Source of the DNA: an uncultured virus (IMG/VR IMGVR_UViG_3300032227_001252)
Taxonomy: Duplodnaviria; Heunggongvirae; Uroviricota; Caudoviricetes
Direction: 5' to 3' (one strand)
Virus record (IMG/VR): IMGVR_UViG_3300032227_001252
Length of the DNA: 64,000 bases
The notes beneath the pieces are model-generated. The model was not told the DNA's origin and did no database searches. It saw only the letters and a list, made by a program, of their open reading frames with translations. The translations under genes and the position numbers were made by a program. Within the stretch, counting starts at the first letter, position 1; each line of letters opens with the position of its first letter. Of the stretch, positions 42,065 through 63,063 are shown in pieces.

Positions 42065-42550
42065 CTACTTCCACTGCTCGAGTGAGAGCGCGTGCTGAGA
42101 CCAGAACTTCCGCGCACTCTCCACGTCGCGGTTGCTCGGGTCGTCCGGGTGCTGCGGCGCGAGGGGCCCTCCGTATACGGTAAAGAGGACGATCTTGCTC
42201 GGGTCGGCCTGATCGGGCATCCCCAGAGCCTGAACGTAGTTGACCGGGCGTGTAGGCCAGGAGACCACACGGTCGGCCCAAGGGCGGTCGCCGCGAGGAC
42301 GGTAGCTCACCGCCGACTCGGGCACCGGAGCGTCTCCCGATGCAGGTCCGTAGAGCGCGTTACGAACAGAGCCGAGGGCTCGCGGAAGTTGGATCGTTTT
42401 GATGAAGAAGGTCTTGGGGTCGTCCGCTGCAATCTGCGCCTGGATGTAGGCCATCTGCTCGGGCTTGATGCCGTGGTCAGCGTGGTAGACCGTAAAACTG
42501 GACGGGTTACGACGGAGGCGCGCAGTGGTGCGAAGAAGAGGCAGGCTCAT
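42065..42550 (-). CDS. hypothetical protein with MSLPLL...LRRNP leader
   Basis: AAGGAG RBS; FTVYGGPLAP...FWSQHAL. Confidence 0.7.
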   Translation of the reverse strand: MSLPLLRTTARLRRNPSSFTVYHADHGIKPEQMAYIQAQIAADDPKTFFIKTIQLPRALGSVRNALYGPASGDAPVPESAVSYRPRGDRPWADRVVSWPTRPVNYVQALGMPDQADPSKIVLFTVYGGPLAPQHPDDPSNRDVESARKFWSQHALSLEQWK

Positions 42551-42577
42551 TGCGAAGGTACTCCTTGAGGGTTCAGA

Positions 42578-43765
42578 TCAACGCTCTGCCCGCTTGCGCA
42601 GCATGGCCAGACCGCGATCCGCGGTGAGAGTGAGTGTGGCACGCGCAGCACGCACTGCGTTCTCGAGCGCGGCCTCCCGAAGCTGCGACCAGACCTGCTG
42701 GTAGGCTCCTACATTCTCGAAGGCACTCTCCACCGCACGAAGAAAGCGCTGCCAGTCTCTGGACTCCGCCGCGTGCATGATCTCGCGGGCGTCGTAGTCC
42801 ACCTGATCTGCCATGCTCTGCTTGACCTTACCAACGTACGCCCGGCGCTCCTCAACCGTTTCTTTCCAGGTCGGGTTCGACTTCACCGCCGGGCGGTAGG
42901 CCTTGTTGATGTAGTCGAGGTCGAACCAGAAGGAGAGGATGTTCGAGCCCGCGGGGGTGTCCCAGTAGTAGCTCCCCCGCTCGTTGTTGTGGCTGTAGTC
43001 AGCGCCGTATCCGCCGCGCTGCACCCCGACGGGATTGACACCCTCTGACTGAAGGTACTCCACCGCAGTCCTCTTGAACGCATCGCGTCCGGGTCCAGTC
43101 TTGATGGCGGTGTAGGTCTTGTTGGGGTGAATGTGAACCCAGTACCCGTAGTTGGAGGTGGGGGCGCGGGGGTTCTTCTTCCGGCTGACAGCGGTATCTG
43201 GGTACTGGCCGCTCTGCGCCCAGGTGCCCCAGCGGATCGGGCGGCTCAAGCCAGGGCCGTTGATCCAGTAGTCGTTCCTCTTAGGCGAGAGCGTGGCCGA
43301 GAAGATGTCACCGTTAGGGAGGCGAATCGCAGCCATCTTTTGGTGGTCGCGGCCTGCTGTGATGTCTTCAGCACCTCGGGTATCGACCTTCTCGAGGACG
43401 AGGAACACCGCCAGCGCCTGCAGGGCCGCGTCGGACTCCTCGAACCAAACGGTCTTGGGCTTCTTCGCCTCCACGCCCGTCTTCAGGTCGCGGTAGACGG
43501 TGTGGCCGGTCTGGCCCATTCGCCGGAGTTCGGAGTGGAACGGAGGCGCTTGAAAGCCAAAGTCCTTCAAAGGGTTCTCTTCGTACTTCACGACGCGACC
43601 CTTCGGGCTCTGGCTCCCGAGCATGGTGAGCGAGCCGTCAGCGCCTCGGCGGTACGCGAAGACGTGAACCCCGTGAGCGCGCGCCAGCTCGCGGGCCTTG
43701 TTCAGGTCAGGGATTTCAGCGCCCTTCGGCGTGACGCCAGGAACGGCGTAGACGACGTTGCTCAC
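42578..43765 (-). CDS. multi-module hypothetical protein punctuated by NP motifs
   Basis: EENP, RKKNP and KSNP separate blocks of about 60-130 aa. Confidence 0.7.
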   Translation of the reverse strand: MSNVVYAVPGVTPKGAEIPDLNKARELARAHGVHVFAYRRGADGSLTMLGSQSPKGRVVKYEENPLKDFGFQAPPFHSELRRMGQTGHTVYRDLKTGVEAKKPKTVWFEESDAALQALAVFLVLEKVDTRGAEDITAGRDHQKMAAIRLPNGDIFSATLSPKRNDYWINGPGLSRPIRWGTWAQSGQYPDTAVSRKKNPRAPTSNYGYWVHIHPNKTYTAIKTGPGRDAFKRTAVEYLQSEGVNPVGVQRGGYGADYSHNNERGSYYWDTPAGSNILSFWFDLDYINKAYRPAVKSNPTWKETVEERRAYVGKVKQSMADQVDYDAREIMHAAESRDWQRFLRAVESAFENVGAYQQVWSQLREAALENAVRAARATLTLTADRGLAMLRKRAER

Positions 43766-43777
43766 ATCACACCCCGA

Positions 43778-44266
43778 CTAGAAGTTGTACCCGAACGGGT
43801 TGCCCTTGATGCGAACCGCTTCGAAGAGACCCTCGGGCGCGGCCGTGCGGGACTTCGGGGTGTAACCACGGAGCTTCCCGGCCTTCTCATCGGCCCACGC
43901 CACGCGGATGGCCTCGCCCGGGTACCAGCCGAGTTCTTGCATCAGGTCGCGAGCGTAGCTCATGACCCGGCGCGAACGCTCGACGTGAGCCTTGCGCTTG
44001 TCCGACCAGCCGGCCTCACGCTGACGCTTCGCGTCACCCTTCTGACGCTTGTAGAGCGTGCCCTGCTTGGTGACGAGGCGGCCTTCAGCGTCGCGTGCAC
44101 GGGCAGCACGAGCCGCCGGCGTGGAAGCCGCAGCCGCAGCTGCATCGGGGTTCACGCGGTTGATCGCGCGGCGGAGAAGCTCGCGGCTCGCAGCGGGGTT
44201 GCCACGGGCTGCGCTGTGCTCCAGCTCCTGATGGGACATGTTGAACGGGTTCGAGCGCATCCGCAT
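43778..44266 (-). CDS. highly basic small protein with four [RK]xNP motifs
   Basis: RSNP, RGNP, RVNP, KGNP; Arg/Lys/Ala-rich. Confidence 0.7.
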   Translation of the reverse strand: MRMRSNPFNMSHQELEHSAARGNPAASRELLRRAINRVNPDAAAAAASTPAARAARARDAEGRLVTKQGTLYKRQKGDAKRQREAGWSDKRKAHVERSRRVMSYARDLMQELGWYPGEAIRVAWADEKAGKLRGYTPKSRTAAPEGLFEAVRIKGNPFGYNF

Positions 44267-44268
44267 GA

Positions 44269-44706
44269 CTACCCCTTACGAGCCTTCTGGGCCTTCTGGA
44301 TGTTGATGGCAGCGGCAGCCACGAAGGCAGTGCCCTGCAGGAAAGAAACGGCACGAAGCAGCATCTGGTCGCTGGGGAGCTTCCACGCGGCGTAGTAGTT
44401 CACACCGGCTGCGACACCCATCCCACCTGCCCAGGTGTAGTAGTAGGTCGACGTGCGGCCCGGCGTGGGGATCGTGAGGCCCTGCCAGTACCCGACCGCG
44501 GCCCCGCGGGCGTTGCTGATCGCTTCCCCGGCCTGCTCACGAACCATCTGCCCGAGCGGGTTCGCGGGGTTCATCATGACGTCAGCGATTGCCGTCGTCA
44601 CGGTGTCCTGAATGAACTCCTGCGTCTCCATGGAAGGAGCAGCAAGGGGAAGCCCCGAAGGGGTGTCCACCGCAGCGAGTGCGGTGGTGGTGTCGTCAGC
44701 GGCCAC
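44269..44706 (-). CDS. putative membrane protein
   Basis: GAGG RBS before GTG 44706; two hydrophobic C-terminal segments and a basic tail. Confidence 0.55.
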   Translation of the reverse strand: MAADDTTTALAAVDTPSGLPLAAPSMETQEFIQDTVTTAIADVMMNPANPLGQMVREQAGEAISNARGAAVGYWQGLTIPTPGRTSTYYYTWAGGMGVAAGVNYYAAWKLPSDQMLLRAVSFLQGTAFVAAAAINIQKAQKARKG

Positions 44707-45925
44707 GGTTGTACCTCGTCTTGGGACTGTATCCGCGGCGAACAGGCCCGCGTGGGTTGTTGAGCTTTCCGAAGATGGCGGCCATGTCGTCGTAGGCACT
44801 GTCTTCGCCGCTCGCGAACGCAGGCGCGGACACCGGGACTGGTTCCGGGGATCGGGAGGATGCCGCAGATCGCGCCTGGCGCTCACCCGTGAGCCCGAGG
44901 AGTTCGTCGAGGTCGCTCAGGTCGGAGCTGCCCGCGGTTATCTCAGGGGGCGCGGTCTGCTCTGGGTCTCGGGGAGACGTCTCGCCCCAAATGCTGCGGG
45001 TGGACGCGAACATGCGGCGCTGCTCCTCGGTAGGTGCAGCAGCTTCGCCACGCCCACGACGGCTCAAGCGCGGTTCTGCCTTCAATGTCTGCAGACGGCG
45101 ACGGCGCTGATCCTGCTCCGCGTACCGGAAGGCGCGAAGCTCAGCGACCTGCGTCTCTCGCAGTTTGGTCTCTGCGTGGATGAACTCCTCCATGAAGGAG
45201 TCTGGCTCCACATAGGTCTTGGCGACCCGCTTCTGGGCGGTCTTCCCCGCACCCTCCGTCCAGGTGGTCACCATGTGGAGGCCGTCGAAGTATTCCCACG
45301 CCCCGCGAAGCTCCAGGCTCACGTCCGCCCACGACTCGATCGTCTCGATGTAGTCAGCGTGCCTCTCGGGGTGGTTCGCGGAGTTGATGCCGAAGATCGC
45401 CTGAGCTGCCGATTTCATCACGTCGCGAGCCGCGGCCACATCATCGCTCACGACGGCCCAGCCGAAGCCTTTCGGCAGGGGCGGCGCTTCGGGAACTTCA
45501 GACACGGCGACGTGCGGCATAGAAACCGGCACCACCGTCTTGCAGAGGGCGGTGATGTAGACCAGGTAGGCGTCCATGACGTTCGAGAAAGCGCGGGAAC
45601 GCATCTCAACGACGCTCATGATGTCGCCGATGCCCGACATCGCCGTGTAGTCGGCGATCGTCGTGACCTTGGGTCCGCCGCCCCACCGCGTGTAGGGCTG
45701 CTTGATCGTGCCCTGCTCTTTGCCGTAGAGGCTCTCACGCGGCCCCTTGAACATGTCCCAGAAGTGGCGTGCTGCTGCCTGAACAGCGGGATCATCGGGC
45801 GAGAGACACCGCGTCCGCGGATCAGTGATGCACTTCTTGGCCCTCTCAAACGTGAGATAGCGCTCCGACGTACGTTGAACGTCGTGGCTCAAGTACGCGG
45901 CAGGGTTCTTCCGGCGGACGGGCAT
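44696..45925 (-). CDS. hypothetical protein with MPVRRKNP leader
   Basis: 409-aa ORF; NP motifs near both termini. Confidence 0.65.
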   Translation of the reverse strand: MPVRRKNPAAYLSHDVQRTSERYLTFERAKKCITDPRTRCLSPDDPAVQAAARHFWDMFKGPRESLYGKEQGTIKQPYTRWGGGPKVTTIADYTAMSGIGDIMSVVEMRSRAFSNVMDAYLVYITALCKTVVPVSMPHVAVSEVPEAPPLPKGFGWAVVSDDVAAARDVMKSAAQAIFGINSANHPERHADYIETIESWADVSLELRGAWEYFDGLHMVTTWTEGAGKTAQKRVAKTYVEPDSFMEEFIHAETKLRETQVAELRAFRYAEQDQRRRRLQTLKAEPRLSRRGRGEAAAPTEEQRRMFASTRSIWGETSPRDPEQTAPPEITAGSSDLSDLDELLGLTGERQARSAASSRSPEPVPVSAPAFASGEDSAYDDMAAIFGKLNNPRGPVRRGYSPKTRYNRGR

Positions 45926-45937: not shown

Positions 45938-46531
45938 TCATGCCTCCTCGAGGAACTGGGACAAGGGCATAGCACTGCCCACGAGCACGGCTACGGCCTG
46001 TCCAGGCCTCGATCGGGTGTCGTATCGGAACACCTGCACCGGCGTACTCTCGGTGACGACCTTCTCGATGTGCAGCAGATGGGCCAGCAGGACGCTCAGC
46101 GGGGCCGGGCGGTCCGGCGTGTATCGCTCAGCCAGAGCATCGGCGGCATACAGCCCCTTGTACCGAAGGATGCTCGGCTTCCCCGAGAGCGTGGCGCCCT
46201 GAAGGACGACCAGTCCGGAGGTGTTCGATTCGAAATCCGGGAACACAGACACGGACGTGACCATGTTCCGGCGAAGCTGGATCTCCTTGACCGCCTTGTT
46301 CGAGCGCACCCACGGGTACAGGAACTCGATGCTGCGCCGGAGCATTTTTGCCCGCTCTCGAACAGCCTTCCCGCGCAGGCTCTCGTCCGAGACCTGAGTC
46401 GGGTACATCTGCTCTTGAAGCCTCGAGTAGATCTCCAGTACCACCTCATCGGACGGGTCCGGGGTGCCTGCCAGGATCTCAAGTTCGCGCATGGCGTGCT
46501 CGCGAAGCTGCTCAGGGGTGTAGCGGCTCAT
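45938..46531 (-). CDS. hypothetical protein
   Basis: 197 aa; ATGA overlap. Confidence 0.6.
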   Translation of the reverse strand: MSRYTPEQLREHAMRELEILAGTPDPSDEVVLEIYSRLQEQMYPTQVSDESLRGKAVRERAKMLRRSIEFLYPWVRSNKAVKEIQLRRNMVTSVSVFPDFESNTSGLVVLQGATLSGKPSILRYKGLYAADALAERYTPDRPAPLSVLLAHLLHIEKVVTESTPVQVFRYDTRSRPGQAVAVLVGSAMPLSQFLEEA

Positions 46532-47190
46532 GACACCAGCCTCTTGGTCAGGAAGAACGTCGTCCCCGCCACCATGAGCGCTCCTGCGATGAAGGGCAGC
46601 GGGTTCTTGGAGACAGCGCCTGCCGCCTGCTGAGCCGCGGCCACGAAGTTCTCCAGACCCTCCTCGGCGAACAGAGCGGCTTCTCGTGCTCGGCGGGTCA
46701 CGAGCCCCTGAATGACCTGGCCCTTCGAGGTCACAGGTCCCGAAGCAATGGCCTTCTGCGCGGCGGCGTAATCCCCACGGCGGACGGCCTCAGTCGCAGA
46801 GTTCACGGAGTAGCTGTTCGGGCCCGTGTTCCAGGCCAGCGAAAACAGTGCGTCGAACATGGCCTGAGAGAGCCGGGCGCCTACGAGCTTCCGGTTGAGG
46901 CTGTTCTCGAATTCCGCGAGTTTGAGCCGGTTGATCTGCTCGAGCTCAGCCGCGGGGATCTGCTTGCCAAGGTACTTGGCGTACTGCTGCCTCGCCGCCT
47001 CCCCCTGGATGGCCACTCCGATACCCATTGTCGGAGTGCCCCTCGCCTCCTCGTACGAGTTCAGGGGGCGAAGTGCCCCAGTGCGGAGGTCGTCGTAGAT
47101 GAACGGGACGTTGGCCTCCGTGCGCACAAGCTCGTCGTACCCCTTCTTCGACAGGTGGAACTGGGGGTTCGCAGGTGCGGCGGCGGCCAT
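46528..47190 (-). CDS. GH24 phage lysozyme with C-terminal TM anchor
   Basis: LSKKG...E-x7-D, TMGIG, LSQAMFDALFSLAWNTG, GLVTRRARE; C-terminal PLPFIAGALMVAGTTFFL-TKR. Confidence 0.85.
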   Translation of the reverse strand: MAAAAPANPQFHLSKKGYDELVRTEANVPFIYDDLRTGALRPLNSYEEARGTPTMGIGVAIQGEAARQQYAKYLGKQIPAAELEQINRLKLAEFENSLNRKLVGARLSQAMFDALFSLAWNTGPNSYSVNSATEAVRRGDYAAAQKAIASGPVTSKGQVIQGLVTRRAREAALFAEEGLENFVAAAQQAAGAVSKNPLPFIAGALMVAGTTFFLTKRLVS

Positions 47191-47474
47191 CAGTGCTCCG
47201 ATTCGTCTTCCTTGGCGATGATCCGCTCGATCTTCGCCTCCAGCGCGGAGACGGCGGTCTTGAGGTCGACGAGCAGCTCCATCATACGCTCCAGCGTGAC
47301 CTCCTCTCGGGAGCGGAGAGCATCTGCACGCTGCGATGCCGACACGGGCGCGCGGCGGGGAGACGTCGGCTTCCTTGCCTTGCGACGCTCCACTTCAGCG
47401 TGGGCATCCAGATCGCCCTCCTGCATGAGGGCAGCCAGTTCGGTAGAGCTCATCCGTAAGTACTTGATTTTCAT
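47190..47474 (-). CDS. hypothetical coiled-coil protein
   Basis: Coupled ORF; heptad-rich C-terminus. Confidence 0.55.
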   Translation of the reverse strand: MKIKYLRMSSTELAALMQEGDLDAHAEVERRKARKPTSPRRAPVSASQRADALRSREEVTLERMMELLVDLKTAVSALEAKIERIIAKEDESEH

Positions 47475-48097: not shown

Positions 48098-48410
48098 TGA
48101 GGGCACCGTGGCGAAGGAGGTGGGCGTTCAGCTCCATCCAGGCGGACGGCAGCGCGAACAAGGGGCAGTTGAAGGTAGAGATGGCGTGGCCCTCTACCCA
48201 AGAGACGAGTCCAGCAGGGAGCGCATCTGCCCGAAGAAGAGGCGCAGCAGGGAGGACACCCCGAAGCGCCCTCCACACCTCGCCGGACTTCATCACGGCG
48301 ACCCGGGTGTGCGTGCCGCGGTCTGCGTACTCGACCACTACGACAGGACTGTCCAGCCCTTCGTGCCGCAGGACGCAGGTAGCGGTGGGGTCGATTCGGA
48401 AGAAGGTCAT
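48090..48410 (-). CDS. hypothetical protein
   Basis: ORF from MTFFRID; fills the gap. Confidence 0.5.
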   Translation of the reverse strand: MTFFRIDPTATCVLRHEGLDSPVVVVEYADRGTHTRVAVMKSGEVWRALRGVLPAAPLLRADALPAGLVSWVEGHAISTFNCPLFALPSAWMELNAHLLRHGALNG

Positions 48411-49713: not shown

Positions 49714-49958
49714 GTGCGGATCCCGACGTGCTTTTCAGCCTTGTAGATCTTGTACCCGACCGAGAGCAGGGTGCTGAGTGCACCGAAGAGGATGGCCGTG
49801 CGAACCTCCTTCTTCACGCTCACGTTCGGGTCGATGTGCGACACGATGTAGGCAGCTGCGCCGGACGACACAGCCCCGGTCACCAGGGCGATGGCGAGCA
49901 GGTTCTGCACCTCTGGCTTCGACAGCATCGCCGTGCCCTGCTGCGAGATGAGACTCAT
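49710..49958 (-). CDS. small two-TM membrane protein
   Basis: Two hydrophobic helices. Confidence 0.55.
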   Translation of the reverse strand: MSLISQQGTAMLSKPEVQNLLAIALVTGAVSSGAAAYIVSHIDPNVSVKKEVRTAILFGALSTLLSVGYKIYKAEKHVGIRT

Positions 49959-50683
49959 CGGGAACTCCTGCGACTTCTCTCGTCGACAACATGAAGGAGC
50001 GCGAACTGACGCGCGTTGAGGTCGGCTCGCCGCTTTGCGTCGTCCGACGTTGACTTCTGCTTCACAGCACGCGCGATCGTGCGAAGTTCAGCGCTCACAC
50101 CGGTCGTGGGGTACCCGGAGTACACAGCACGATAGCGCGCCACCTCGCTCTTGGGAGGAGCAGGGTTGATTCGCTGCGACATGGAGTTGATCGCGAGCTC
50201 GCAGTCGCCGTCGGAGAAGCCTTCGTCCTGAAAGTTGAGCACTTCCTTGAGCTCATCGCAGAGCGTGCGGATGAGCACAGAACGAAGAGACGCCTCCTGA
50301 AGCGGAATGTTGATCGGGGCATCCCCGAGCCCTTGAGCGCGCATCAGAAGTTCACGAAGAACCTTCGCCATCTCGATGGGCTTGTGCTCCCCGAGCACCT
50401 TCTGGGCCTTCCTGTACCGCATCTTGGCTTGCATCGGAGTCACAGGGGCGAACCTGTTTGCCAGGATGGAGAGGACTTGACGGGCCTCCCCTCGACTCAT
50501 GATCGGACGGCCACGACGACGCGCGGCCTCCTCTGGATAGTCTTTCTGGATGCCGCGGGGCGTCAGCAGTTCGATGAACTCATCCGGCACGCCCGTTTCC
50601 GGGTCGATGCCGACGTAGACCTCCCGCACGGTGACGACACCTGTGCCGGGCAGCACGAACCTGACGCCTCGGGCGATCCGCAT
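49955..50683 (-). CDS. CarD/CdnL-family transcription factor with RINP-separated C-terminal extension
   Basis: VLPGTGVVTV..., RPIMS...A..VL..L, RYR.....L......EMAKVLREL, E......R..L..EL..V. Confidence 0.7.
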   Translation of the reverse strand: MRIARGVRFVLPGTGVVTVREVYVGIDPETGVPDEFIELLTPRGIQKDYPEEAARRRGRPIMSRGEARQVLSILANRFAPVTPMQAKMRYRKAQKVLGEHKPIEMAKVLRELLMRAQGLGDAPINIPLQEASLRSVLIRTLCDELKEVLNFQDEGFSDGDCELAINSMSQRINPAPPKSEVARYRAVYSGYPTTGVSAELRTIARAVKQKSTSDDAKRRADLNARQFALLHVVDERSRRSSR

Positions 50684-54378: not shown

Positions 54379-56277
54379 TCAGATCTCCAGCTGGTAGCCC
54401 TTCAGCATATCGAGGTTGGCGTCGATGTACTCCGTGAGCGCAGCCTCGAGCTTCGGGACGAACGGCAGGTCGGACAGGAGCTTCACCCCGTGCTCGCGCC
54501 CCTTCTTGTACAGGACGCGGTACGGGACGAGTTCTGCCATCGCCTGCAGTCCGTCGTCCACCCACCCCTCGCGGCACGCCTTGGTGTCGATCACATACGG
54601 CATCCACTCTGACACTGTGCTGACCGTCTTCCCGCGCAAGTGCTGTGGGTAGTGCCGCAGCGTATGGTCAGCCCACACCAGAGCCATTCGGAGAGCCTCG
54701 TACGCAGCTTCGACGCGATCGGTCACGTACCCGATCTTCGCCATCTCGCGCTTCGCTGCGCTGGTGATGTAGGCGCCCGTGTACGTTCTCGTGTCGGGCA
54801 TCATCCTGTCGCCGAGACGGTGAAGGATCGTGTGCGCAGTGTAGGGCGAGATCCGTGTCCGCCTCTCGTCACCGAAGAGGTCTGTCACCGACTCGTGAAA
54901 CCCCTCCACCGTATGCGGAGACGCCAGAAGGGTCACCACACCGGGCGTTCCTCGTTCGATGCGATTCTTCCACTCATACGCGGGGTTCCAGTCGACGACG
55001 AGGCGGATGTTGGGGATGACGTCCTTTCCCTGCGCCTCGATGCGGTCGAGAGCGGCCTTGCTCTGGAAGAAGCGAAGGTGGCGGCTCCCTACCTCGCGGC
55101 CTGTAGGCGCTCCCGAGACCTTCACTTCGATCGGGTTCTGCTTCTGGCGCATCGACTCTATCTTCGCGCGGACTGCATCGGGCAGGACAGCAAACTGCTT
55201 CTTGTCAGCGGTCCACGAGGTCTTGCCGCCGACGACGAGCGAGTTCACGCGTGCGACAGCCCAGTTCTGGGCGGTCGCGCCCGGGCGGTGACCGCCGCTC
55301 TTCCAGGCCGCGAGCCCCTTCGCGAACGACGCCCGCAGGGCCTCGGCGAAAGCCTCGACCTCGCGTGCGGGTGCGCGGCCAGAGTAGAAGCGGAGGACAC
55401 GGGCCGCCATGTCTTCGGCGTTGCCCCGCCACTCGATCCCGCGCTTCTTCGCCTCGGTCGTGTACTTCGACTGCTTCACGAGGCCCATCTTGCGGGCGGC
55501 GCGGTCCGTGGGGAGCTCAGAGTAGTCGCCCCGCTTGTAAGCGTCTCGCGACTCCGTGAGCTCGCGGATCCTTTGCTGCTGCAGAGCAGGCGGAAGCCCC
55601 GCCAGGTAGCGCTCAGGGATGTGCCGCCCCGCGAGGTCGACAGGGTTGCTCATCACTTCCCCGATGTCGAGGATGTACGCGGGGTCGCCGTCACCCGCAT
55701 CGGCCACCTTGGTGAACCCGAGCCGGGTGAGCCAGGCGTACGCGCGTTCTCGCTTGTCGTTGCCCCAGCCGACCTTCAGACGAACTGGCTTGAGGGGCCG
55801 CCCGGCAACCGGGGTCACAGATCGAGCTCCCGAAATCGTCCACTTGATGTGCTCGAGCACCCGACGAAGGAACCCGATGCTGCCGGCTCCTGTTTCGTCG
55901 TAATGTCCGCCCTTCTTATCGGACCCGCTCAGCCATCGAAGAACCTTGTTCTCCGCTACCCCCCAACTCTTTCCGGACTGGAGCGTGACCACGAGATTGC
56001 GCTGTTTGTAGTCTTCGAACTCTTCGTTATCCCAGAACGACACCCCGACCCAGTGCTTCCCGCTCCCGAGCGCCCGGAAGATCCGGATCTGGAAGTCGTA
56101 CACACCGGTCAGCTTCTGGATCTCACGGGCAAACGCATCGTCCCGACTGCGCGGGGCCAGATCCTTATAGTCGGGGGTGTACTCGCGGTAGGGCGTGCGG
56201 GAGCCCTTCACCAGTTCTGGGATGGGGTTGGCGACGTACGCGACTCCGCTCACGATCGGGATGACGGCCTTGTACAT
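54379..56277 (-). CDS. three-module protein; middle module DUF5824-like
   Basis: Modules start after VANP, MSNP and KQNP; middle has IPERY, SKYT, GLAAWKSGGHRPGATAQNWAVARVNS...GKT..TADK. Confidence 0.7.
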   Translation of the reverse strand: MYKAVIPIVSGVAYVANPIPELVKGSRTPYREYTPDYKDLAPRSRDDAFAREIQKLTGVYDFQIRIFRALGSGKHWVGVSFWDNEEFEDYKQRNLVVTLQSGKSWGVAENKVLRWLSGSDKKGGHYDETGAGSIGFLRRVLEHIKWTISGARSVTPVAGRPLKPVRLKVGWGNDKRERAYAWLTRLGFTKVADAGDGDPAYILDIGEVMSNPVDLAGRHIPERYLAGLPPALQQQRIRELTESRDAYKRGDYSELPTDRAARKMGLVKQSKYTTEAKKRGIEWRGNAEDMAARVLRFYSGRAPAREVEAFAEALRASFAKGLAAWKSGGHRPGATAQNWAVARVNSLVVGGKTSWTADKKQFAVLPDAVRAKIESMRQKQNPIEVKVSGAPTGREVGSRHLRFFQSKAALDRIEAQGKDVIPNIRLVVDWNPAYEWKNRIERGTPGVVTLLASPHTVEGFHESVTDLFGDERRTRISPYTAHTILHRLGDRMMPDTRTYTGAYITSAAKREMAKIGYVTDRVEAAYEALRMALVWADHTLRHYPQHLRGKTVSTVSEWMPYVIDTKACREGWVDDGLQAMAELVPYRVLYKKGREHGVKLLSDLPFVPKLEAALTEYIDANLDMLKGYQLEI

Positions 56278-56289: not shown

Positions 56290-57126
56290 TCAGATGTAGA
56301 AGACGTAGTTGCCCCTGCTCAGGCCGATGTTGAGGGCGTCGATGTAGGCGCGCATGATGGCGTCGCTGCGGTGACGCAGAGCAAGTAGAACCGGCGGCCA
56401 TTCCACATTGACACCGTTTACGACGAGGGGCGCGTCTGGGTTGAAGCCCCATTTGCCGGTCTTAGCACGAAGGGCGAACAGGTCCGCATTCATCTGCGCA
56501 GAGTTTGCCAGAACTCCCATTCTGCCAGCAGCGGTGTCCACCCCCGCGCTGATGACAGCGGCCATGGCTCGGACTCTGTCGGGAGCGAGGCCTCGGCGAA
56601 CTAGTTGACCACCCAAACGGTAGCTCTGGGTGTCGTACGCGATCATCGTATCGTACAACTTCGAGAACGGCAGTTCACGGCGGAAGTGTTCTGGGATCAC
56701 CTCCCGCCAAGAAGGGCCCCCGCCAGTTCCCACAGAGTCCCACAGCCGATGGAGGACCGTGAATGGCGTGATGGGGGCTATGCGAGCCGGGTCTCCCCTC
56801 TCTCCGCGCACGTCAAGCACGCCGGGCGGGTGTTCGGGAACGAAGGTGAAGGCAACATTGTCGTAGCTCTTACGGGCTATGTCCTGGGCCTCTCTGCGAC
56901 CTGCCGCGTAGACAGGATCGTAGATGTCAGGCGGCCATCGCTCCCCGGCCGGAAGAACTATTACAAGGAGCTTCAGGTTGAACGGCACGCCCCGCAGTTC
57001 CTTCGAGTAGATCTCGAACGCGTTCCGGTTCACTAGTGGCCTGTGAAACGACAGAGTGCGCGCCGGCGAGATTGAGCCCTGAACGGTGAGATCTGTCAGG
57101 GGGTTGTGACGAGAGTGCGTCCGCAT
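56290..57126 (-). CDS. hypothetical protein, paralog of the last module of 54379..56277
   Basis: RHNP leader; TPFTVLHRLWD vs TAHTILHRLGD; DTAAGRMG vs DTKACREG; YID near the C-terminus in both. Confidence 0.7.
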   Translation of the reverse strand: MRTHSRHNPLTDLTVQGSISPARTLSFHRPLVNRNAFEIYSKELRGVPFNLKLLVIVLPAGERWPPDIYDPVYAAGRREAQDIARKSYDNVAFTFVPEHPPGVLDVRGERGDPARIAPITPFTVLHRLWDSVGTGGGPSWREVIPEHFRRELPFSKLYDTMIAYDTQSYRLGGQLVRRGLAPDRVRAMAAVISAGVDTAAGRMGVLANSAQMNADLFALRAKTGKWGFNPDAPLVVNGVNVEWPPVLLALRHRSDAIMRAYIDALNIGLSRGNYVFYI

Positions 57127-57131: not shown

Positions 57132-59234
57132 CTACATGTCGTTGTGGGAGACGCGGACAGGTCGGCCGTCCCAGCGCTTCACCGACGTCCAGTTCTCGTT
57201 CGAGCCGAGATTTCCGTCCGCGCCGACCATCATGCGGAAGGGCGCCGTACCGCGACGGCTGTCATAGCCCTCAGCAGAACGGTCGGGCACCACAGTCCCG
57301 TTGTAGAGATTGCCCGAGTCGTAGCGCTTCCCGATCGCCTTCACCATCACGCTGGCCGGCGAGATGGACACCACCTCGTAAAAGTCCGCGGTGTCGATGG
57401 CGATGTTCTTCTTCACCACGACGTCGCCGACCTTGTACGCGTGCTGGATGGGCCGAGCAGCCTGCTCCTGAATCCGCTGACGGACAAAGCCCGTCGGGGC
57501 CGGGGCCGGGCGGGGGGCTTCGGACGGCGCCGGACGGGGGCCAGGGGAGACAGCAGACGGCGAGACACGAAGGCCCCGGCGCTCGGCCTTGCGGACCATC
57601 TCCTCGGCCTTTTCGGGCTGGTAGCACCACTGCGGCGTACCGCTGCCCGTGAGGACAGGAGTGCCGTCGTCGTTGTAGATGTAGAAGCAGACCTTCCCCC
57701 ACTGATCGCGGCCGGACTTGTGGTAGGGGTTCTCGAGATCCTTCTTCTTTCTCGACATGATCAGCTCCTGCAAATCGCGGATGTTGTAATTGCCCACATC
57801 CGTCTTGATGTAGGGCATGTACCCTGCACTCTTCGCTGCAAGTGCAGCCTCGAGAGCGGCTTCAGGATCTGCACCCGAATAATCCTCGATGTGAGGGTAC
57901 CGCACAGCGAGCACTACGCCCCGCCGCGGGTGTAGCACCCTGAACCTCGATGGTTCGGGCGGCTGATAGGGGTCTGGCTGCGCCATGGCGACCTTCCTGA
58001 CAGGGTTGGAGCGAATGAGTTCTGCGAAGCGCTTCGAGCCGCTCCAGCGGGCACCGGGGTCTCCGCCCCAGTTGAGCCACGACCAGTACCGCTTCCCGCT
58101 CTTGCGGGCGTACTGGTCTGACATGCGATCCTGCTTCGTCTTGCGATCGAAGTACATGCGCATGCGGCGGAGAGCTGCGTCAGAGATCGAAGGAGAGATG
58201 GCAAGCTGGATGGCGCGTGCGACCCCGATGAAGTCGTAGCCGCCGTAGTTGTTCTGGTGGGAGAGCCGGATGCCCTCCATCGCGGCCTCGCGCACGTCTT
58301 CGGGGACAGCGTGACCGCCGGGCTGCTCCTGCCCTGCTGCGGCTTCCGAGGACACGGCCCCGCGGTTGTTGAGGTTCAGAGCCAGGAGAACGCTGTGGGC
58401 GTCGGGCGCGGCCGGCGGAAGTTCGTCCGACGTGGCTCCTGCTGCCTTTAGCTTCATGCGACTGCTGTTGAGCTGAGCCCGCCAGTCAGAGGGCATCTTG
58501 CGGAGCAGACTGTTGATCTCCGACACGTTCGCCTTGATGGAGGCGGGGTTCTTCTTCCTCATGCCGTGAACGACGTCGGAGCCCACAAGTGCCGCCGCGC
58601 CGACGCGGAGGCCCCCTGATGCAGTCAACTTGGCGTACTCCCCGACCCCGCGGCCCAGGGCGGAAGCGGTGGCCGAAACACCCTTGGCGGCCTTCACTTC
58701 GTCCCGCATCCCGCGCAGGGCCGCGGCCTTCTCCTTCTCGACGCGGATTGCTTCGGGGAGGGCGTCGATCACCATCATGACCTCGCCCACGACGGGAATG
58801 GCCTTGGTCCCAGCCTTCGCGGCAACCTTGGCGCCGGCCTTCGCGGCCGTCTTCCCCGCCACTTTCGTGGCGGCCTTCGAACCGCCAGCCTGAAAGAGCT
58901 TGCGCAGCAGACCCACGCGCTTCTGCGCCTTTCGACCTGCTGCTGCGAGGTCTCGAGCGGTCAGTTCTTCGTCTGGGTTCCTGCGCATGCTTGCCCCCTG
59001 AAACTTCTGGAGGCCAAGTGCCGCCGCGCTGCGGATGGTGTCGCGCCCTGGCATCTCGTCCACTTCAACTTCGACTGTCTGCTCAGGCTTCGCCCCGTCG
59101 CGCACACGCACGGACCATCCGCGGCGACCGCGGGAAGCGACGACGTAGCCCGTCGGAAGCTCCGGCGGGTAGTGCCATTCCCCGTAGTTCGGCCCGGCCT
59201 TTACCGTCGGGCGCCCGAGAGGCTTCAAGGGCAT
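57132..59234 (-). CDS. multi-module protein punctuated by four NP motifs
   Basis: RRNP, KKNP, RSNP, LENP; includes a GVARAIQLA...RMRMYFDR...WLNWGG module of a kind seen in phage head-associated proteins. Confidence 0.7.
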   Translation of the reverse strand: MPLKPLGRPTVKAGPNYGEWHYPPELPTGYVVASRGRRGWSVRVRDGAKPEQTVEVEVDEMPGRDTIRSAAALGLQKFQGASMRRNPDEELTARDLAAAGRKAQKRVGLLRKLFQAGGSKAATKVAGKTAAKAGAKVAAKAGTKAIPVVGEVMMVIDALPEAIRVEKEKAAALRGMRDEVKAAKGVSATASALGRGVGEYAKLTASGGLRVGAAALVGSDVVHGMRKKNPASIKANVSEINSLLRKMPSDWRAQLNSSRMKLKAAGATSDELPPAAPDAHSVLLALNLNNRGAVSSEAAAGQEQPGGHAVPEDVREAAMEGIRLSHQNNYGGYDFIGVARAIQLAISPSISDAALRRMRMYFDRKTKQDRMSDQYARKSGKRYWSWLNWGGDPGARWSGSKRFAELIRSNPVRKVAMAQPDPYQPPEPSRFRVLHPRRGVVLAVRYPHIEDYSGADPEAALEAALAAKSAGYMPYIKTDVGNYNIRDLQELIMSRKKKDLENPYHKSGRDQWGKVCFYIYNDDGTPVLTGSGTPQWCYQPEKAEEMVRKAERRGLRVSPSAVSPGPRPAPSEAPRPAPAPTGFVRQRIQEQAARPIQHAYKVGDVVVKKNIAIDTADFYEVVSISPASVMVKAIGKRYDSGNLYNGTVVPDRSAEGYDSRRGTAPFRMMVGADGNLGSNENWTSVKRWDGRPVRVSHNDM

Positions 59235-59240
59235 CTCGAC

Positions 59241-59777
59241 CTACCCGTAGTAGGGCTTCGGCGCCGCGTACGGGCCGCGAGGCCCGCTGAAACCGGGAGG
59301 AGTGAGGCCGAGAACCTGGATGCCCGTCATGCGGCGAAGCTCTGCGCTGCGGTGCAGGTCACGAATGTGCTGGCCGAGAGCCATCACGAACGCGTAGTCG
59401 GGATCGCGGCGTCCGTAGAGCAGGATGCCGTGGTGCTTCCCGTCACGAGCGATGAACATGATGTCCCCGTTCGTGTTCAGGGAGAGCTTGCCGTCCTTGC
59501 AGGAGACGACCACGGCCTTGGTGTCGTCGATGGCCTTGGGTCCGCGGGCGGGGCGCTTCGCATCGGCGGCCTCCGCCGTTGCTACGTCCTTCTTCGCCTT
59601 CGAGATCTTCTCCACGATCAGCTTGGCCTTGGCCTCGCTGAAGCAGAACCTCTCGCCCGAGGGGCCCGTCGCGACCGTACCGTCATCGTTGAAGATGAGG
59701 TAGCACTGCGCGTTCTGGCTCGCGGGAATGTGAGACAGTCCGCCGGGCGTGTGACGGTAGTAGGGGTTGTAGCGCAC
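59241..59777 (-). CDS. hypothetical protein with MRYNP start, related to a module of 57132..59234
   Basis: CYLIFNDDGT...FCFSEAKAKLIV vs CFYIYNDDGT...WCYQPEKAEEMV. Confidence 0.65.
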   Translation of the reverse strand: MRYNPYYRHTPGGLSHIPASQNAQCYLIFNDDGTVATGPSGERFCFSEAKAKLIVEKISKAKKDVATAEAADAKRPARGPKAIDDTKAVVVSCKDGKLSLNTNGDIMFIARDGKHHGILLYGRRDPDYAFVMALGQHIRDLHRSAELRRMTGIQVLGLTPPGFSGPRGPYAAPKPYYG

Positions 59778-59838
59778 GTGGTGATCCTCGCTCGTGAAGA
59801 GCGTACTTCATCGGCGTGCAGCAGACAGGGCGGAAGTG

Positions 59839-60186
59839 CTACGTCCGACCGAACGCGGACCCGTCATCCTTCCGCCAGCGATACCCGACGTGCTCCGAGG
59901 ACAGGCGCACGGGCGGCTTCCCGACAGTCCTCACCTCGAAGACGTAGAACATCTTCCCGTCGTCGCGCGCGAACACCTTCACCATGGAGAGGGTCGAAGG
60001 GCGAACAGAGATGCCGGTCTCTTCCTTGAGCTCGCGTGCAGCGGTGTAGTCCGGCGTCTCTCCTTCTTCCGCATGGCCACCTGGCAAGTCCCACTCGCGG
60101 CCGGCGGAGACGTCCTCTGGACTGCGCTGCAGTTCGAGGATCTGATCGCCGGTCAACAAGCGAACGAGCGAGACACGAGGGGCCAT
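59839..60186 (-). CDS. Nudix hydrolase
   Basis: Nudix box GGHAEEGETPDYTAARELKEETGI; LSSEH. Confidence 0.9.
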   Translation of the reverse strand: MAPRVSLVRLLTGDQILELQRSPEDVSAGREWDLPGGHAEEGETPDYTAARELKEETGISVRPSTLSMVKVFARDDGKMFYVFEVRTVGKPPVRLSSEHVGYRWRKDDGSAFGRT

Positions 60187-60192
60187 CGGAGC

Positions 60193-61119
60193 CTACTCCT
60201 TGTTGCGGAGGAAGGCCCAGTACACCCCGCCTGCCACTGCGATCGTGCCGAGGCCTACAGACGGCCAGAACCACCACGCGTCAGTGAGGCTGGCTTCCTG
60301 CTGGAGCCCGGGCACAGACACATCTGTCGTCTCGGGGGCCGTCGGGAGCGACGGGGTCGGCGTGTACGACCGTGCCGGCGCAGAGCCCGACCTGAGCCGG
60401 CCATTCACGAAGTCGTTGTTGAGGTTCGCGGCCACCGCTGCGTACTTGGCGTCGCTCTTCGAGAACGTCTTGCCACCCGTCACCACGGTGCCGGACGCGT
60501 CTATCTTGTAGGTGTAGGTCCCGTCCGTCCAGGTCTTGCCCAGCAGCGCCGAGTTCAACAAGCCGGATGCTGCAGCCGAGGAGCCGCTCTCACGGCGGAG
60601 GGCCGCTTCTGCCTCGTCACGGGCCTGACGCTTGACGTCTTCCAGCTCGTACTCTCGTGCGAGCTGCTTGATGGCCTCCTTCTCCTTGGAGTTGAAGAAG
60701 TACATCTTGCTCAGGTTCGCGTTCCAGTAGGCGATCGCCTTCTTGGCGTCGATCTTGTCCTTGGACGGGCCGTACTTGAGCACGTACGCGAGGTTGTTCG
60801 AGATGAAGTCGCCGATCGAGAAGGAGTTCGTGACGGACAGGTAGCGCAGCTGCTCGGCCGCCTTCGTTCCTACGGCGTCGTTGTCGGTGAACGACACCAA
60901 GATCCGCAACTTCGGCGCGACATAGGCCGCCAGGGCGTTGCGGTCTTTGACGTTCATGAAGTCAGCGATGGCCCGCTTCGCGAGATCGCTCTTGTCGTAG
61001 GTCTGACGCGCTACGCTGATCGCGTCAGAAACCGACGTCGAGAGAGCGCCGAGGGGTGCGGTGACACCATACACCGACTCGATCGAAGAGCGCGATGCGG
61101 GCTGGAACGTGGGGGTCAT
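60193..61119 (-). CDS. hypothetical protein with C-terminal TM anchor
   Basis: WWFWPSVGLGTIAVAGGVYWAFL-RNKE after a Pro/Thr linker. Confidence 0.65.
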   Translation of the reverse strand: MTPTFQPASRSSIESVYGVTAPLGALSTSVSDAISVARQTYDKSDLAKRAIADFMNVKDRNALAAYVAPKLRILVSFTDNDAVGTKAAEQLRYLSVTNSFSIGDFISNNLAYVLKYGPSKDKIDAKKAIAYWNANLSKMYFFNSKEKEAIKQLAREYELEDVKRQARDEAEAALRRESGSSAAASGLLNSALLGKTWTDGTYTYKIDASGTVVTGGKTFSKSDAKYAAVAANLNNDFVNGRLRSGSAPARSYTPTPSLPTAPETTDVSVPGLQQEASLTDAWWFWPSVGLGTIAVAGGVYWAFLRNKE

Positions 61120-62093
61120 GCGATCCTCTGACGGAAGACGGTCTTTGCGAGGTACGCTTCCTGCTTGTCTGCAAGAGCGGGCATCGGCTTCTTCTTGGCG
61201 GGGTTGTAGCCTTCAGAGACCGGGTTGGACTTCACCTGACGGATGACGCGCTTGACGCCCCAGATGGCCACTCCCGCGAGCAGCACGCCACCCACGATCT
61301 TGACCCCGAGCGAGACCATCTCTCCAGTTGCCTGAGCCGTGCAGTAGCCAGGGATGTACGACCGCCACGTGTCCTCACACGGGACGTCCGGTGCCTTCTC
61401 CGGCGGAGCCTTCTCAACATCCTGACGCGCGGTGGTCTGCTTCTGCGCTTCATCGACGCGAGCCGCTACAGCCCTTCGGTCAGTACCACGGCGCAGCTGC
61501 TCGAGCGCGTCAGCGGCAACTTCAGTCGTGCCGCCGCGGCGCTTGATGGCCTTCTCCAGCAGAGCGTACGCAGAGTCGTAGGTCGACTTGATAGAGCTGT
61601 TGCGGTTCGCTGCGTCTACGTCCACGCCTGCAGTCAGACCACTCTCGATGCGCTCTTTTGCTGCATCCCGCAAGCTCGTGTCATTGAGCGCGAGGAACCC
61701 AACAGCCAGCCAGTACCCCGTCTTGAGCAGCGAGGCTGCGTCGTTACTCGCGAGCGTGGTGAAGGTGCTGTAGTTGGGAAACGCCTCGATGTCCGAGTAC
61801 GAACGCCCTGCCGTGATCATGTTCGACACAGCGTCGTAGTGGTTGTAGGTGGAGACGTTCGCCTTCCGGTCCGCGAGGTCGGAGCGGGTGTAGCGCACGC
61901 CAGGGATCCACTTCGTGGACAGCCCATACGGGTCGCCGTAGGCCGATCCGACGAACTGAGGGTTCGCCGTGACGTACCGCTGCTGGAACCCGAAGCTGTC
62001 CGAGGGGTACATCACCTGTGCAGGGTACGTCGCGAGGGGAACGCCCCCGCGCTGGAAGTACCCGGTGCTGTAGAAGACTGCCCGGCTGGCCAT
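61116..62093 (-). CDS. hypothetical protein with C-proximal TM followed by KSNP
   Basis: TAATG overlap; IVGGVLLAGVAIWGV-KRVIRQVKSNP. Confidence 0.65.
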   Translation of the reverse strand: MASRAVFYSTGYFQRGGVPLATYPAQVMYPSDSFGFQQRYVTANPQFVGSAYGDPYGLSTKWIPGVRYTRSDLADRKANVSTYNHYDAVSNMITAGRSYSDIEAFPNYSTFTTLASNDAASLLKTGYWLAVGFLALNDTSLRDAAKERIESGLTAGVDVDAANRNSSIKSTYDSAYALLEKAIKRRGGTTEVAADALEQLRRGTDRRAVAARVDEAQKQTTARQDVEKAPPEKAPDVPCEDTWRSYIPGYCTAQATGEMVSLGVKIVGGVLLAGVAIWGVKRVIRQVKSNPVSEGYNPAKKKPMPALADKQEAYLAKTVFRQRIA

Positions 62094-62347
62094 TACCCCT
62101 CCTTCGTCGCCGCTCGGAAGCGGCGCACCTGGTACTGCATGTAGGAGGACGCCTGATTCAGACGGTCGTTCGCAGTCGCGATCTGGTAGTGAACCCACTG
62201 CGGCAGGTCGTCGTTGTCCTCGAGAGCTTCCGCGAGTGCGGCTGCATTCTTCGCCATCTGCTCAAGGTACTGCTTCGCCATCCGGCCCTGGAGCGAGTTG
62301 CTCTTGGTCGGGCCGTAGTCGAAGTGGCGTCCTGTCTGGAACTTCAT
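62093..62347 (-). CDS. small hypothetical protein
   Basis: LEDNDDLPQWVHYQIATA.D.L......Y helical motif of a kind seen in large-phage proteins. Confidence 0.6.
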   Translation of the reverse strand: MKFQTGRHFDYGPTKSNSLQGRMAKQYLEQMAKNAAALAEALEDNDDLPQWVHYQIATANDRLNQASSYMQYQVRRFRAATKEG

Positions 62348-62409
62348 GGGGGCAGCCTCACCCACGGAGAGTAGCCGCACCTGACCTACGGGGGCTGCTT
62401 CGAAGTGCT

Positions 62410-62754
62410 CTACGCCCGCTTGATGGAGAACTCGATGCGGCCATCATCCCACGCGTTGAGGACCTCGAGGTACGCGCGACCGTGCGTGGAGAGATCCGAC
62501 TCGACCGCTGCGAGAGCTTCGTCGAGGGAACTGAAGGACTGGCGCCCGACGTAGATGTCTGCATCGTGGGGAGTCATCCGCTTGATCTTGTCCCTGGCGC
62601 CCGCCCACGCGAACAACTGAGGTTCTTCAGGGACATCCCATGTCGGAGTCTCGTCGGGGCCCGCACCCATGCGCTGTTCGACCCCAACCACCACGAAGGT
62701 GTTCGGCGTTAGAGCCGGATTGCGCCGCAGCACGGTGGGGAGGGGCAGCGCCAT
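62410..62754 (-). CDS. hypothetical protein with MALPLPTVLRRNP leader
   Basis: GAGGA RBS; leader nearly identical to that of the neighbour. Confidence 0.7.
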   Translation of the reverse strand: MALPLPTVLRRNPALTPNTFVVVGVEQRMGAGPDETPTWDVPEEPQLFAWAGARDKIKRMTPHDADIYVGRQSFSSLDEALAAVESDLSTHGRAYLEVLNAWDDGRIEFSIKRA

Positions 62755-62760
62755 GGTTCC

Positions 62761-63063
62761 TCAGCGGAGCAGGGTCGGTTCGGAGAGCGACGTGTTCCCC
62801 AGACCCGCACTCCGGCCGTTGGAGAACAGGCGCTTCACTTCGGATGCCGGGAGGACTCCCTGCTTGTATGTGACAGGCCGCCCATCCGTGATCAGCGTGG
62901 CTGATCCGTCAGCGTTCATCACGAACGTCAGGTAGAAGTAGGTGTTGGACTGGCCCATGTCAGAGAGAGAAATGTAGGACGACAACGCCTGAAACTTCTG
63001 ACCCGGAGCAGGGAAGTGCATCGCGGGGTTGCGGCGCAGGACGGTGAGGAGACGTAGTGCCAT
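62761..63063 (-). CDS. hypothetical protein with MALRLLTVLRRNP leader
   Basis: Leader shared with 62410..62754; body unrelated. Confidence 0.7.
   Translation of the reverse strand: MALRLLTVLRRNPAMHFPAPGQKFQALSSYISLSDMGQSNTYFYLTFVMNADGSATLITDGRPVTYKQGVLPASEVKRLFSNGRSAGLGNTSLSEPTLLR

Follow-up and report, generated by a model that had tools for sequence, protein, structure and literature searches.

Phage head proteases are known to read short sequence codes. The protease gp21 of phage T4 acts at the site [L/I]-x-Glu, and T4 internal proteins carry capsid-targeting leaders, while the site in phages phiKZ and SPN3US is A/S/G-x-Glu. Here we describe another short motif, [RK]-x-Asn-Pro ([RK]xNP), in proteins encoded on a stretch of 64,000 nucleotides from an uncultured virus of the Caudoviricetes (IMG/VR record IMGVR_UViG_3300032227_001252), which as a whole is called the window in the following. 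The motif accumulates in one block of the window, where it appears to mark the borders between domains and linkers (seams) of basic, modular proteins, and it may represent the processing site of cargo proteins of the head. Similar to the codes of T4 and phiKZ/SPN3US, one short motif occurs across unrelated, basic proteins, where it would end propeptides and split precursors. By this analogy, the proteins described here seem to resemble prohead-protease substrates, in which a short common motif separates the propeptide from the mature protein and the parts of a precursor from each other. Unlike the T4 and phiKZ codes, the motif contains Asn-Pro and not Glu, the leaders may have only four residues, and sites are also located near C-termini.

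A second class for comparison are the polyvalent proteins, which are predicted to be delivered together with the DNA and to be processed by embedded zincin or assemblin-like peptidases, the zincin-like metallopeptidase being their commonest hub domain with about 36% of the members (Iyer et al., 2017; PMC5512222). In the available text of that paper no junction motif is named for polyvalent proteins and the word "linker" does not occur. Like the polyvalent proteins of that text, the proteins considered here are large mosaics of disparate effectors, among them ART-PolyVal, GNAT, Pol-beta nucleotidyltransferase (NTase), PcfJ, helicases, lysozyme and RelA/SpoT, with at least two disparate effector or enzyme domains per polypeptide. 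An embedded zincin-like metallopeptidase is missing from the block, a domain that is not obligatory for the class. Unlike the polyvalent proteins as portrayed there, they have a fixed Asn-Pro seam, and many members consist of a single module with only a leader or a tail. What is new here is a seam code in polyvalent or cargo proteins, a class already known; literature searches, with supplements outside their scope, gave no paper that describes [RK]xNP or an Asn-Pro seam in phage proteins.

The Motif Is Concentrated in One Block of the Window

The window has a guanine-cytosine (GC) content of 64%, and nearly every gene is located on the minus strand. It encodes a family-A DNA polymerase, Sak4, exonucleases, a RecD/Dda-like helicase and many ORFans. 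Its SNF2 protein is on record on a contig of 178,212 bp, so that the window comprises about one third of the genome or less. The DNA polymerase is only 28% identical to its best match, megablast gave no close cultured relative of the block, and tblastn gave no match in cultured phages for one of the seam proteins, a 700-amino-acid (aa) open reading frame (ORF; 57132-59234). By these searches, the window phage has no close cultured relative. Scans of IMG/VR with single window proteins found nothing, and those with alignments found distant relatives only.

For counting, 85 ORFs were picked by a simple rule of length and GC content at third codon positions (GC3). The motif block on the minus strand, 42065..63063, comprises 26 ORFs with 7126 aa, which are mostly basic and contain 35 Asn-Pro (NP) and 19 [RK]xNP. 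A first-pass annotation of the same DNA had counted 19 by eye, which holds against a shuffled background: whole-protein shuffles gave a mean of 1.79 (standard deviation 1.35, maximum 7), and 19 or more were reached in none of 2000. Shuffles within segments of 10, 20 and 40 residues gave means of 2.0, 1.8 and 1.6, respectively (maximum 7, 1000 shuffles each). Because these local shuffles give only 1.6-2.0, the count is not explained by the basic, Asn/Pro-rich composition of the linkers. Outside the block, the fibre block (1867-14991) has 0 [RK]xNP versus 0.53 expected, the replication block (15001-30080) 5 versus 1.33, of which 4 are left without the RecD-like helicase, the small-gene block (30450-42064) 1 versus 0.68, and the region 1-1800 2 versus 0.07. 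The earlier estimate had been about four motifs in a replication/accessory block of roughly 24 kb, without RecD, and none in the fibre block. The three further motifs that had been listed outside the block exist as well, with the one given as FRRNP at 1354 lying in ORF 1294-1761, at 1669-1680.

The signal depends on the order and identity of the residues. In the block, [RK]xNP occurs 19 times, whereas [RK]xPN occurs twice and PNx[RK] three times; the acidic variant [DE]xNP is present twice, and [RK]x[S/T/D]P, summed over three commoner residues, 13 times. The three frames of the coding strand contain 22 motifs in total, those of the opposite strand 2, and the motif is read in the coding frame alone. 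Arg and Pro codons of the motif are variable and Asn is AAC in 25 of 27 cases; AACCC is nearly always in the Asn-Pro phase, which matches the GC3 expectation. A signal at the DNA level is ruled out by the variable Arg and Pro codons and by the 2 motifs on the non-coding strand, as had already been proposed from the variable codons. Furthermore, the placement is not random, since 9 of the 19 block motifs lie within the first 30 residues (binomial p = 7e-5), in line with the leaders described earlier. In 59 metagenome loci introduced below, the N-terminal excess is modest, with 20 of 173 motifs in the first 15 residues versus 9.5 expected. The [RK] rule undercounts seams, because three leaders close with plain NP, namely NFNP in the SNF2 helicase, VANP in the DUF5824 protein and PANP in the lysozyme, and MSNP stands at the start of the DUF5824 domain. 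The block proteins are basic, with a median isoelectric point (pI) of 9.5 and 21 of 26 at 8.5 or above, compared to a median pI of 6.2 and 16 of 59 at this level among the remaining window proteins (Mann-Whitney, p = 1.4e-5).

The Motif Lies at the Borders of Domains

The motif carriers and their sites are located as follows; the last two are outside the block.

57132..59234 (-): 700-aa modular protein; confidently modelled domains 1-82, 230-410 and about 510-560; seams at aa 84, 227 and 408
58974..58985 (-): RRNP seam, aa 84-87 of the 700-aa ORF, end of domain 1
58545..58556 (-): KKNP seam, aa 227-230 of the 700-aa ORF, start of the core domain
58002..58013 (-): RSNP seam, aa 408-411 of the 700-aa ORF, end of the core domain
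54379..56277 (-): 632-aa protein; its single confidently modelled domain, 211-378, is DUF5824
56224..56235 (-): VANP, aa 15-18 of the 632-aa ORF, closes the conserved leader MYKAVIPIVSGVAYVANP
55642..55653 (-): MSNP seam of the 632-aa ORF, no basic residue, DUF5824 start, NP at 211
55132..55143 (-): KQNP seam, aa 379-382 of the 632-aa ORF, DUF5824 end
50683..53505 (-): SNF2 helicase, 940 aa; 16-aa leader ending in NP; C-terminal tail NP-RWPF
53458..53469 (-): NFNP, end of the SNF2 leader
50698..50709 (-): VSNP, before the SNF2 C-terminal tail RWPF
53523..54377 (-): sigma-70 family factor; 30-aa leader closing in RQNP at 54288-54299
43778..44266 (-): 162-aa basic protein; RSNP 44246-44257, RGNP 44195-44206, RVNP 44147-44158, KGNP 43796-43807
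42578..43765 (-): 395-aa ORF; KKNP 43169-43180, KSNP 42872-42883
44696..45925 (-): 409-aa ORF; leader MPVRRKNP 45902-45913; NP 19 aa before the C-terminus
56290..57126 (-): 278-aa ORF; leader MRTHSRHNP 57100-57111
59241..59777 (-): 178-aa ORF; leader MRYNP, GTG start, 59763-59774
62410..62754 (-): 114-aa ORF; leader MALPLPTVLRRNP, 62716-62727
62761..63063 (-): 100-aa ORF; leader MALRLLTVLRRNP, 63025-63036
42065..42550 (-): 161-aa ORF; leader MSLPLLRTTARLRRNP, 42503-42514
49955..50683 (-): 242-aa ORF; internal RINP 50162-50173
61116..62198 (-): 360-aa ORF; KSNP 61221-61232
46528..47190 (-): phage lysozyme; leader MAAAAPANP, 47164-47175
28197..30080 (-): RecD/Dda-like helicase; leader ending IRLNP, residues 28-31, 29988-29999
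191..670 (+): C2H2 zinc-finger protein (PF00096, E 7.6e-11); starts MRRNP, 194-205

All leaders named in the first-pass annotation are present, and MRYNP begins at a GTG codon. A C2H2-type zinc finger such as that of 191-670 is unusual for a phage.

The position of the motif relative to folded domains was read from two AlphaFold2 models, one of the 700-aa ORF (alignment of 50 rows, mean predicted local distance difference test score (pLDDT) 66.7) and one of the 632-aa ORF (15 rows, mean pLDDT 50). In the former, the low-confidence segments 83-96, 216-228 and 413-449 adjoin the motifs at 84-87, 227-230 and 408-411, respectively. In the latter, the confident domain 211-378 (DUF5824) is flanked by the NP at 211 and by KQNP at 379-382. 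In both models the motif sites fall into segments with pLDDT below 50, and both place them at domain-linker borders, as the first reading of the sequence had led to expect. Similar evidence comes from 249 local alignments of block proteins with relatives, the hits being mutually non-independent: internal alignment edges lie at most 6 residues away from an NP in 26% of the starts (n = 167) and 37% of the ends (n = 205), compared to 8% for random positions. Moreover, modules are gained or lost between proteins in the homologue alignment with the motif at each joint, and an ART-PolyVal module is inserted between two motif sites in the homologues P0014 and P0044. In the models and alignments, [RK]xNP marks the seams of the block proteins.

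The Seam Is Conserved in Relatives

Conservation in homologues, which had been proposed as a check of the motif, is pronounced. In 50 homologues of the 700-aa ORF, 179 [RK]xNP were counted versus 12.6 expected. Residues 230-410 of this ORF form a domain with the signature WLNWGGD (phrog_2859), named core domain in the following. At its start, xxNP is found in 41 of the 50 homologues, and in none of them is Ser, Thr or Asp present before the Pro. All 11 aligned SNF2 homologues share N15 and P16, even those of 25-27% identity, and MIRIPGAxLIxINxNP opens all 8 full-length SNF2 proteins (P0053-P0059 at 55-63% identity and P0052 of the window). The C-terminal tail [RHY]W[PL]F of the SNF2 proteins is conserved too, and NP lies four residues before it in 7 of 8 full-length homologues; in P0059 the NP is located nine residues from the end and the terminus is WWPF. 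If the N-terminally truncated P0060 is included, NP directly precedes the tail in 8 of 9 SNF2 proteins (P0052-P0058 and P0060), and the tail may itself be a tag. The MRYNP leader of 59241..59777 is conserved in two metagenome loci (L014 and L056) and present as RYNP in a third (L011), and VKSNPVSEGYN of 61116..62198 is conserved in L014.

The seam is also the place where modules are joined or separated. In L018 and L019, the same module string (88% identical) is encoded by three ORFs and by one ORF of 997 aa, respectively, and the first ORF break in L018 lies 14 residues past a seam. Both loci (L018:3093-6417, L019:1908-4901) contain tandem repeats of about 100 residues, each of which closes with a hydrophobic stretch followed by K-x-N-P. 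The DUF5824 protein is free-standing and starts with MRRNP-TDLAGRHI in L016, and the module is internal in L017 (KMKTNP-IDLAGRHI). The RecD-like helicase, a separate protein in the window, has RRNP at residue 29 in the IMG/VR relative G001. In L037 and L063 it follows the core domain in a fusion protein, with RRRNP joining the two. The NUDIX hydrolase is a protein of its own in the window, and many homologues have it as part of the core-domain protein:

59839..60186 (-): NUDIX hydrolase

The enrichment holds in wider sets as well. The core domain was found in 59 metagenome loci of GC 0.40-0.70, and these contain 173 [RK]xNP versus 29.8 expected, ranging from 10 versus 0.5 in L018 and L019 down to none. 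In G001 (137 kb), the syntenic region at 27-54 kb has 12 versus 2.4 expected, and the remainder 5 versus 5.9. About 12 paralogous collagen- or fibre-like genes (phrog_7713 repeats) flank the SNF2 gene there (L006:6475-19855). A profile search with the core domain gave 3453 clusters (50% identity) at E up to 0.001 and 1379 at E up to 1e-10. From 150 listed representatives, 104 with mutual identity below 50% were used, with rows already in other sets and partial matches left out, and these contain 179 [RK]xNP versus 18.7 expected. Among them, NP is found within about 22 residues after 53 of 77 internal core-domain ends and within 12 residues before 25 of 48 internal core-domain starts. The [RK]xNP seam is widespread, but not universal. 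Some phage relatives are binned within bacterial metagenome-assembled genomes, two with Phycisphaeraceae (L082, L083) and one with a proteobacterium (L084); the 92.7-kb contig of the latter appears entirely viral, with DNA polymerase, primase-helicase and fibre-like genes.

Shape of the Site

A profile was built from 268 non-redundant sites. Upstream of the motif basic residues are enriched, and A, V, R, S or M precedes the basic residue, with Met 3.3-fold enriched directly before it and 2.8-fold directly after NP. The x of the motif is mainly K, R, S or T. After NP, S, A, R, K and M are commonest, and the positions +1 to +3 are variable with none fixed. Asn-Pro is the invariant core, often with a hydrophobic residue before the basic one and with a basic linker upstream. 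The commonest N-terminal leaders are M-[RK]-x-N-P, and NP begins at position 4 or 5 in 17 of 727 proteins. Longer leader families contain a hydrophobic stretch (MALxLxTVLRRNP, IPIVSGIAYVxNP, SGALFITNP) and occur on different cargo proteins. The C-terminal tails past the last NP comprise 2-6 residues and are often aromatic (RWPF, xGSWE, NYYM, FGYNF, RF). No ORF of the metagenome set or of the homologues ends exactly in NP, and one does in the window (26545-27081). Many seams continue into Pro-rich, non-helical sequence. Such a footprint would be left by a site that is recognised from about P4 to a few positions on the prime side, and a small binding motif would fit equally.

Protein Class and the Link to Head Genes

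According to their sequences, the [RK]xNP carriers are probably basic, modular cargo proteins of the polyvalent type. They include NUDIX, SNF2 and RecD-like helicases, a sigma factor, lysozyme and DUF5824; relatives add modules of the ART, GNAT and nucleotidyltransferase types. NUDIX, ART-PolyVal, RelA/SpoT and PcfJ domains are present in homologues of the 700-aa ORF, ART-PolyVal, GNAT, Pol-beta NTase, DUF5824, pentapeptide repeats and PAP2 in core-domain representatives, and RecD-like helicase, NIF/HAD phosphatase and poly-A-polymerase head modules in proteins of the loci. For the ORFans, foldseek of the 700-aa model against the PDB gave no hit at E up to 0.001, phmmer of four ORFans against PDB sequences nothing below E 0.17, and the ESM Atlas no usable match for ORF 44696-45925.

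The core domain connects this class to head genes. Its central part of about 100 residues matches in tblastn (E 4e-11 to 6e-5) the N-termini of large proteins that follow the portal gene in the Synechococcus phages S-CBS1 and S-CBS3 and in Roseobacter CRP phages. Two of the portal-adjacent proteins, S-CBS1 gp04 and CRP-406 gp36, further carry Peptidase_S78 and Phage_capsid. Fold neighbours of the core domain in the Atlas, at template modelling (TM) scores of 0.47-0.56 leads only, belong to Phage_portal, Phage_portal_2 and Peptidase_S78 or S78_2 clusters. BFVD matches (probability 1.0, about 100 columns) are proteins named prohead protease, Mu gp29-like and GTA portal, and also ParB, Dps and HAD-like proteins. 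With these fusions and with fold matches of such variety, the core domain is a promiscuous adaptor that is often joined to head-assembly proteins. The fusions with head genes, the basicity and the polyvalent-type partner domains point indirectly to an association of the block proteins with the virion. As a cultured model, phage PaBG was rejected, since the 6 motifs it has are situated within conserved domains and the core domain stands alone as a protein there.

A Possible Processing Code of Packaged Cargo Proteins

We tentatively favour, at somewhat below an even chance, that [RK]xNP are processing sites of head-packaged cargo proteins that are cut by a phage protease. The cargo proteins would be loaded into the head. 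For at least some of them, loading would depend on the core domain they share, which is found in other phages in fusion with the portal, prohead protease or capsid protein. Afterwards, a protease of the phage, acting in maturation or processing, would cut at or beside Asn-Pro, which would remove the short leaders and tails and free the modules of the fused forms. In this it would resemble gp21 of T4 and the head proteases of phiKZ/SPN3US, which act in this way on internal and ejection proteins. We infer all three elements, the packaging of these proteins, the existence of the protease and the cutting. A protease site from P4 to P1' fits the minimal M-[RK]-x-N-P leaders, the Met, Ala or Val before the basic residue and the minimal tails of 4-5 residues. 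That a protease can read Asn-Pro is known from the zincin PPEP-1 of Clostridioides difficile with the site VNP|PVP, which reads Asn-Pro just before the cut and needs Pro at P1'. Unlike for PPEP-1, the residue after NP varies here, and no PPEP-1 homologue was found.

If this is correct, the gap left by the earlier description would be closed: in 2017, polyvalent cargo was predicted to be injected and processed, and the available text gives no code, which a seam in at least 1379 clusters (E up to 1e-10) would supply. The seam would allow module borders to be read from sequence and the specificity of the protease to be predicted (Asn at P1 or P2, Pro next). It could also flag injected early effectors of uncultured large phages, such as sigma factor, SNF2, RecD-like, NUDIX, ART and GNAT proteins. 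A compact cleavage or tagging signal might moreover serve as a tool, if a protease is involved.

Several findings weigh against the processing of head-packaged cargo. Searches found no peptidase family among the window proteins, HExxH is missing in every block ORF, and a Pfam peptidase family was detected in 0 of 95 proteins from motif-rich loci. The first-pass annotation had named a protease or capsid gene as the partner to look for, and none was found in the window, in G001, in the 92.7-kb contig G002 or in these 95 proteins. Capsid, portal or terminase genes are not recognisable in the window, G001 or G002 either, and two sets of 98 and 95 proteins from motif-rich loci gave neither capsid nor terminase nor peptidase families, the sole portal-family rows being NUDIX domains that match phrog_15528. 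The block is located upstream of early-looking and replication genes and has no known head genes as neighbours. The free core-domain protein of PaBG, with 110 aa, is encoded amid replication genes and annotated as DNA-binding, and S-CBS1 gp04, in which core domain and S78 protease are joined, has no [RK]xNP as read by eye. The core-domain relatives L030, L038 and L051 are without any motif (0.5-0.8 expected). NP also opens a few replication and fibre proteins, two of them with MANP. Finally, the protein 43778-44266 has three motifs that are only 16-17 residues apart, so that cutting would give peptides, which is more like punctuation between helices. HExxH modules, SprT-like in look, were found only in some of the marine relatives (L059, L060, L064-66). 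Candidate processing peptidases are located behind the core domain or within a polyprotein in low-GC marine loci (L065:1525-3069, L059:612-3977 with three, L060:9159-11297), with none in the window.

Alternative Explanations

A rather unlikely alternative to processing is that the motif is not cut at all and acts, together with its hydrophobic and basic upstream residues, as a tag for recognition or packaging. Each module would carry its own tag, and all of them would be bound by the same partner, for example a chaperone, the portal, the scaffold or the inner side of the capsid, comparable to the targeting part of the T4 leaders. The location in flexible linkers and at both termini, the leader families that are conserved across differing cargo proteins and the fusion of the core domain to head genes elsewhere are all in agreement with a tag, and the conservation of the tails after NP (RWPF, xGSWE) would be odd if these were merely discarded. 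Short terminal peptides on flexible linkers are indeed used for cargo loading by encapsulins, where they dock unrelated cargo enzymes in a shell of HK97 fold. Unlike the motif described here, the encapsulin peptides have a different sequence and are not located at every internal joint. One tag per protein should suffice, yet almost every joint has a motif, and four residues (MRRN-P) would be a very small binding site, for which no partner was identified.

It is likewise improbable, though worth weighing, that the motif is structural punctuation read by nothing, with Asn-Pro after the basic end of a helix acting as a stop or start cap that insulates modules. Asn or Gly at C' followed by Pro, and Asn as N-cap with Pro at N1, are favoured in helices. 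In the model of the 700-aa ORF, a helix begins at P230 and another one stops at 409, before N410-P411; in 43778-44266, NP recurs every 16-17 residues between likely helices; and NP alone is 1.7-fold enriched in the rest of the window (51 versus 30). However, Ser, Thr and Asp are no worse helix caps than Asn, but replace it in none of the 50 homologues, and [RK]x[STD]P is not similarly enriched. The motif is limited to one gene class, with 0 in the fibre block and 5 versus 5.9 expected in the rest of G001. Furthermore, an extreme N-terminal M-R-x-N-P has no helix to stop, and many seams lead into the Pro-rich, non-helical sequence mentioned above.

Release without a protease is quite improbable. 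Asn cyclisation would cleave at Asn-Pro, aided by the basic neighbour and triggered in the capsid or on ejection, or a prokaryotic 2A-like skipping would separate the modules; if this is true, diverse viruses would build, load and dismantle cargo polyproteins without a dedicated enzyme. Self-cleavage by cyclisation, to which we give the same low weight, would explain why a protease was found in no locus searched and why the motif spans diverse viruses of GC 0.40-0.70. Asn-Pro is the scissile bond in known self-cleaving proteins, namely in the NPTH of FlhB/YscU/HrcU and in reovirus mu1 (Asn42-Pro43). In these cases catalysis requires a fold around the site, which is a conserved loop with fixed neighbours, whereas the motif lies in disordered, low-confidence linkers (pLDDT below 50) and the residues after NP vary across the 268 sites. 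These findings speak against the analogy to FlhB/YscU drawn in the first-pass annotation, and self-cleavage would leave the basic residue at -2 unexplained.

A signal at the level of translation, that is internal initiation, a folding pause or 2A-like skipping, is very doubtful. The x-N-P resembles the core of ExNPGP in 2A peptides, the phage encodes IF-1, four internal seams of the window come after Met, and Met is enriched before the basic residue and after NP as described above. 2A is not known to act on bacterial ribosomes. The 2A "StopGo" sequence D(V/I)ExNPG|P is not found, since Gly-Pro after NP is not conserved and the -2 position is basic ([DE]xNP 2 versus [RK]xNP 19); moreover, most seams have no Met nearby, and a Met in front of the basic residue could equally well be a hydrophobic P4. 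An artefact of chance or composition, conceivable since high GC favours Arg and Pro and the ORF set rests on a simple criterion of GC3 and length, is practically excluded by 0 of 2000 global and 0 of 3000 local shuffles, by the lack of enrichment of reversed and permuted motifs and by the excess in relatives of GC 0.40-0.70 and in the 104 distant representatives.

Other Genes of the Window

Further genes of the window are the following.

32518-33315 (-): the other of two sigma-70-family factors of the window, besides 53523-54377
47471-48106 (-): Fe/Mn superoxide dismutase, both Pfam halves, E 1.7e-34 and 1.1e-18
37556-38347 (-): GH46 chitosanase-like protein, E 1.7e-19
8402-10186 and 12856-14991: fibre or collagen-like proteins

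The block also encodes a tail-lysozyme-like protein and ORFans. The phage-encoded translation initiation factor IF-1 is located at 30777-30995 (-) (PF01176, E 1.2e-21). Among the fibre-like genes, 11163-12158 (-) encodes a protein of 331 aa that is a full-length Pfam Volactin (PF25216, E 2.5e-72) with an actin fold.

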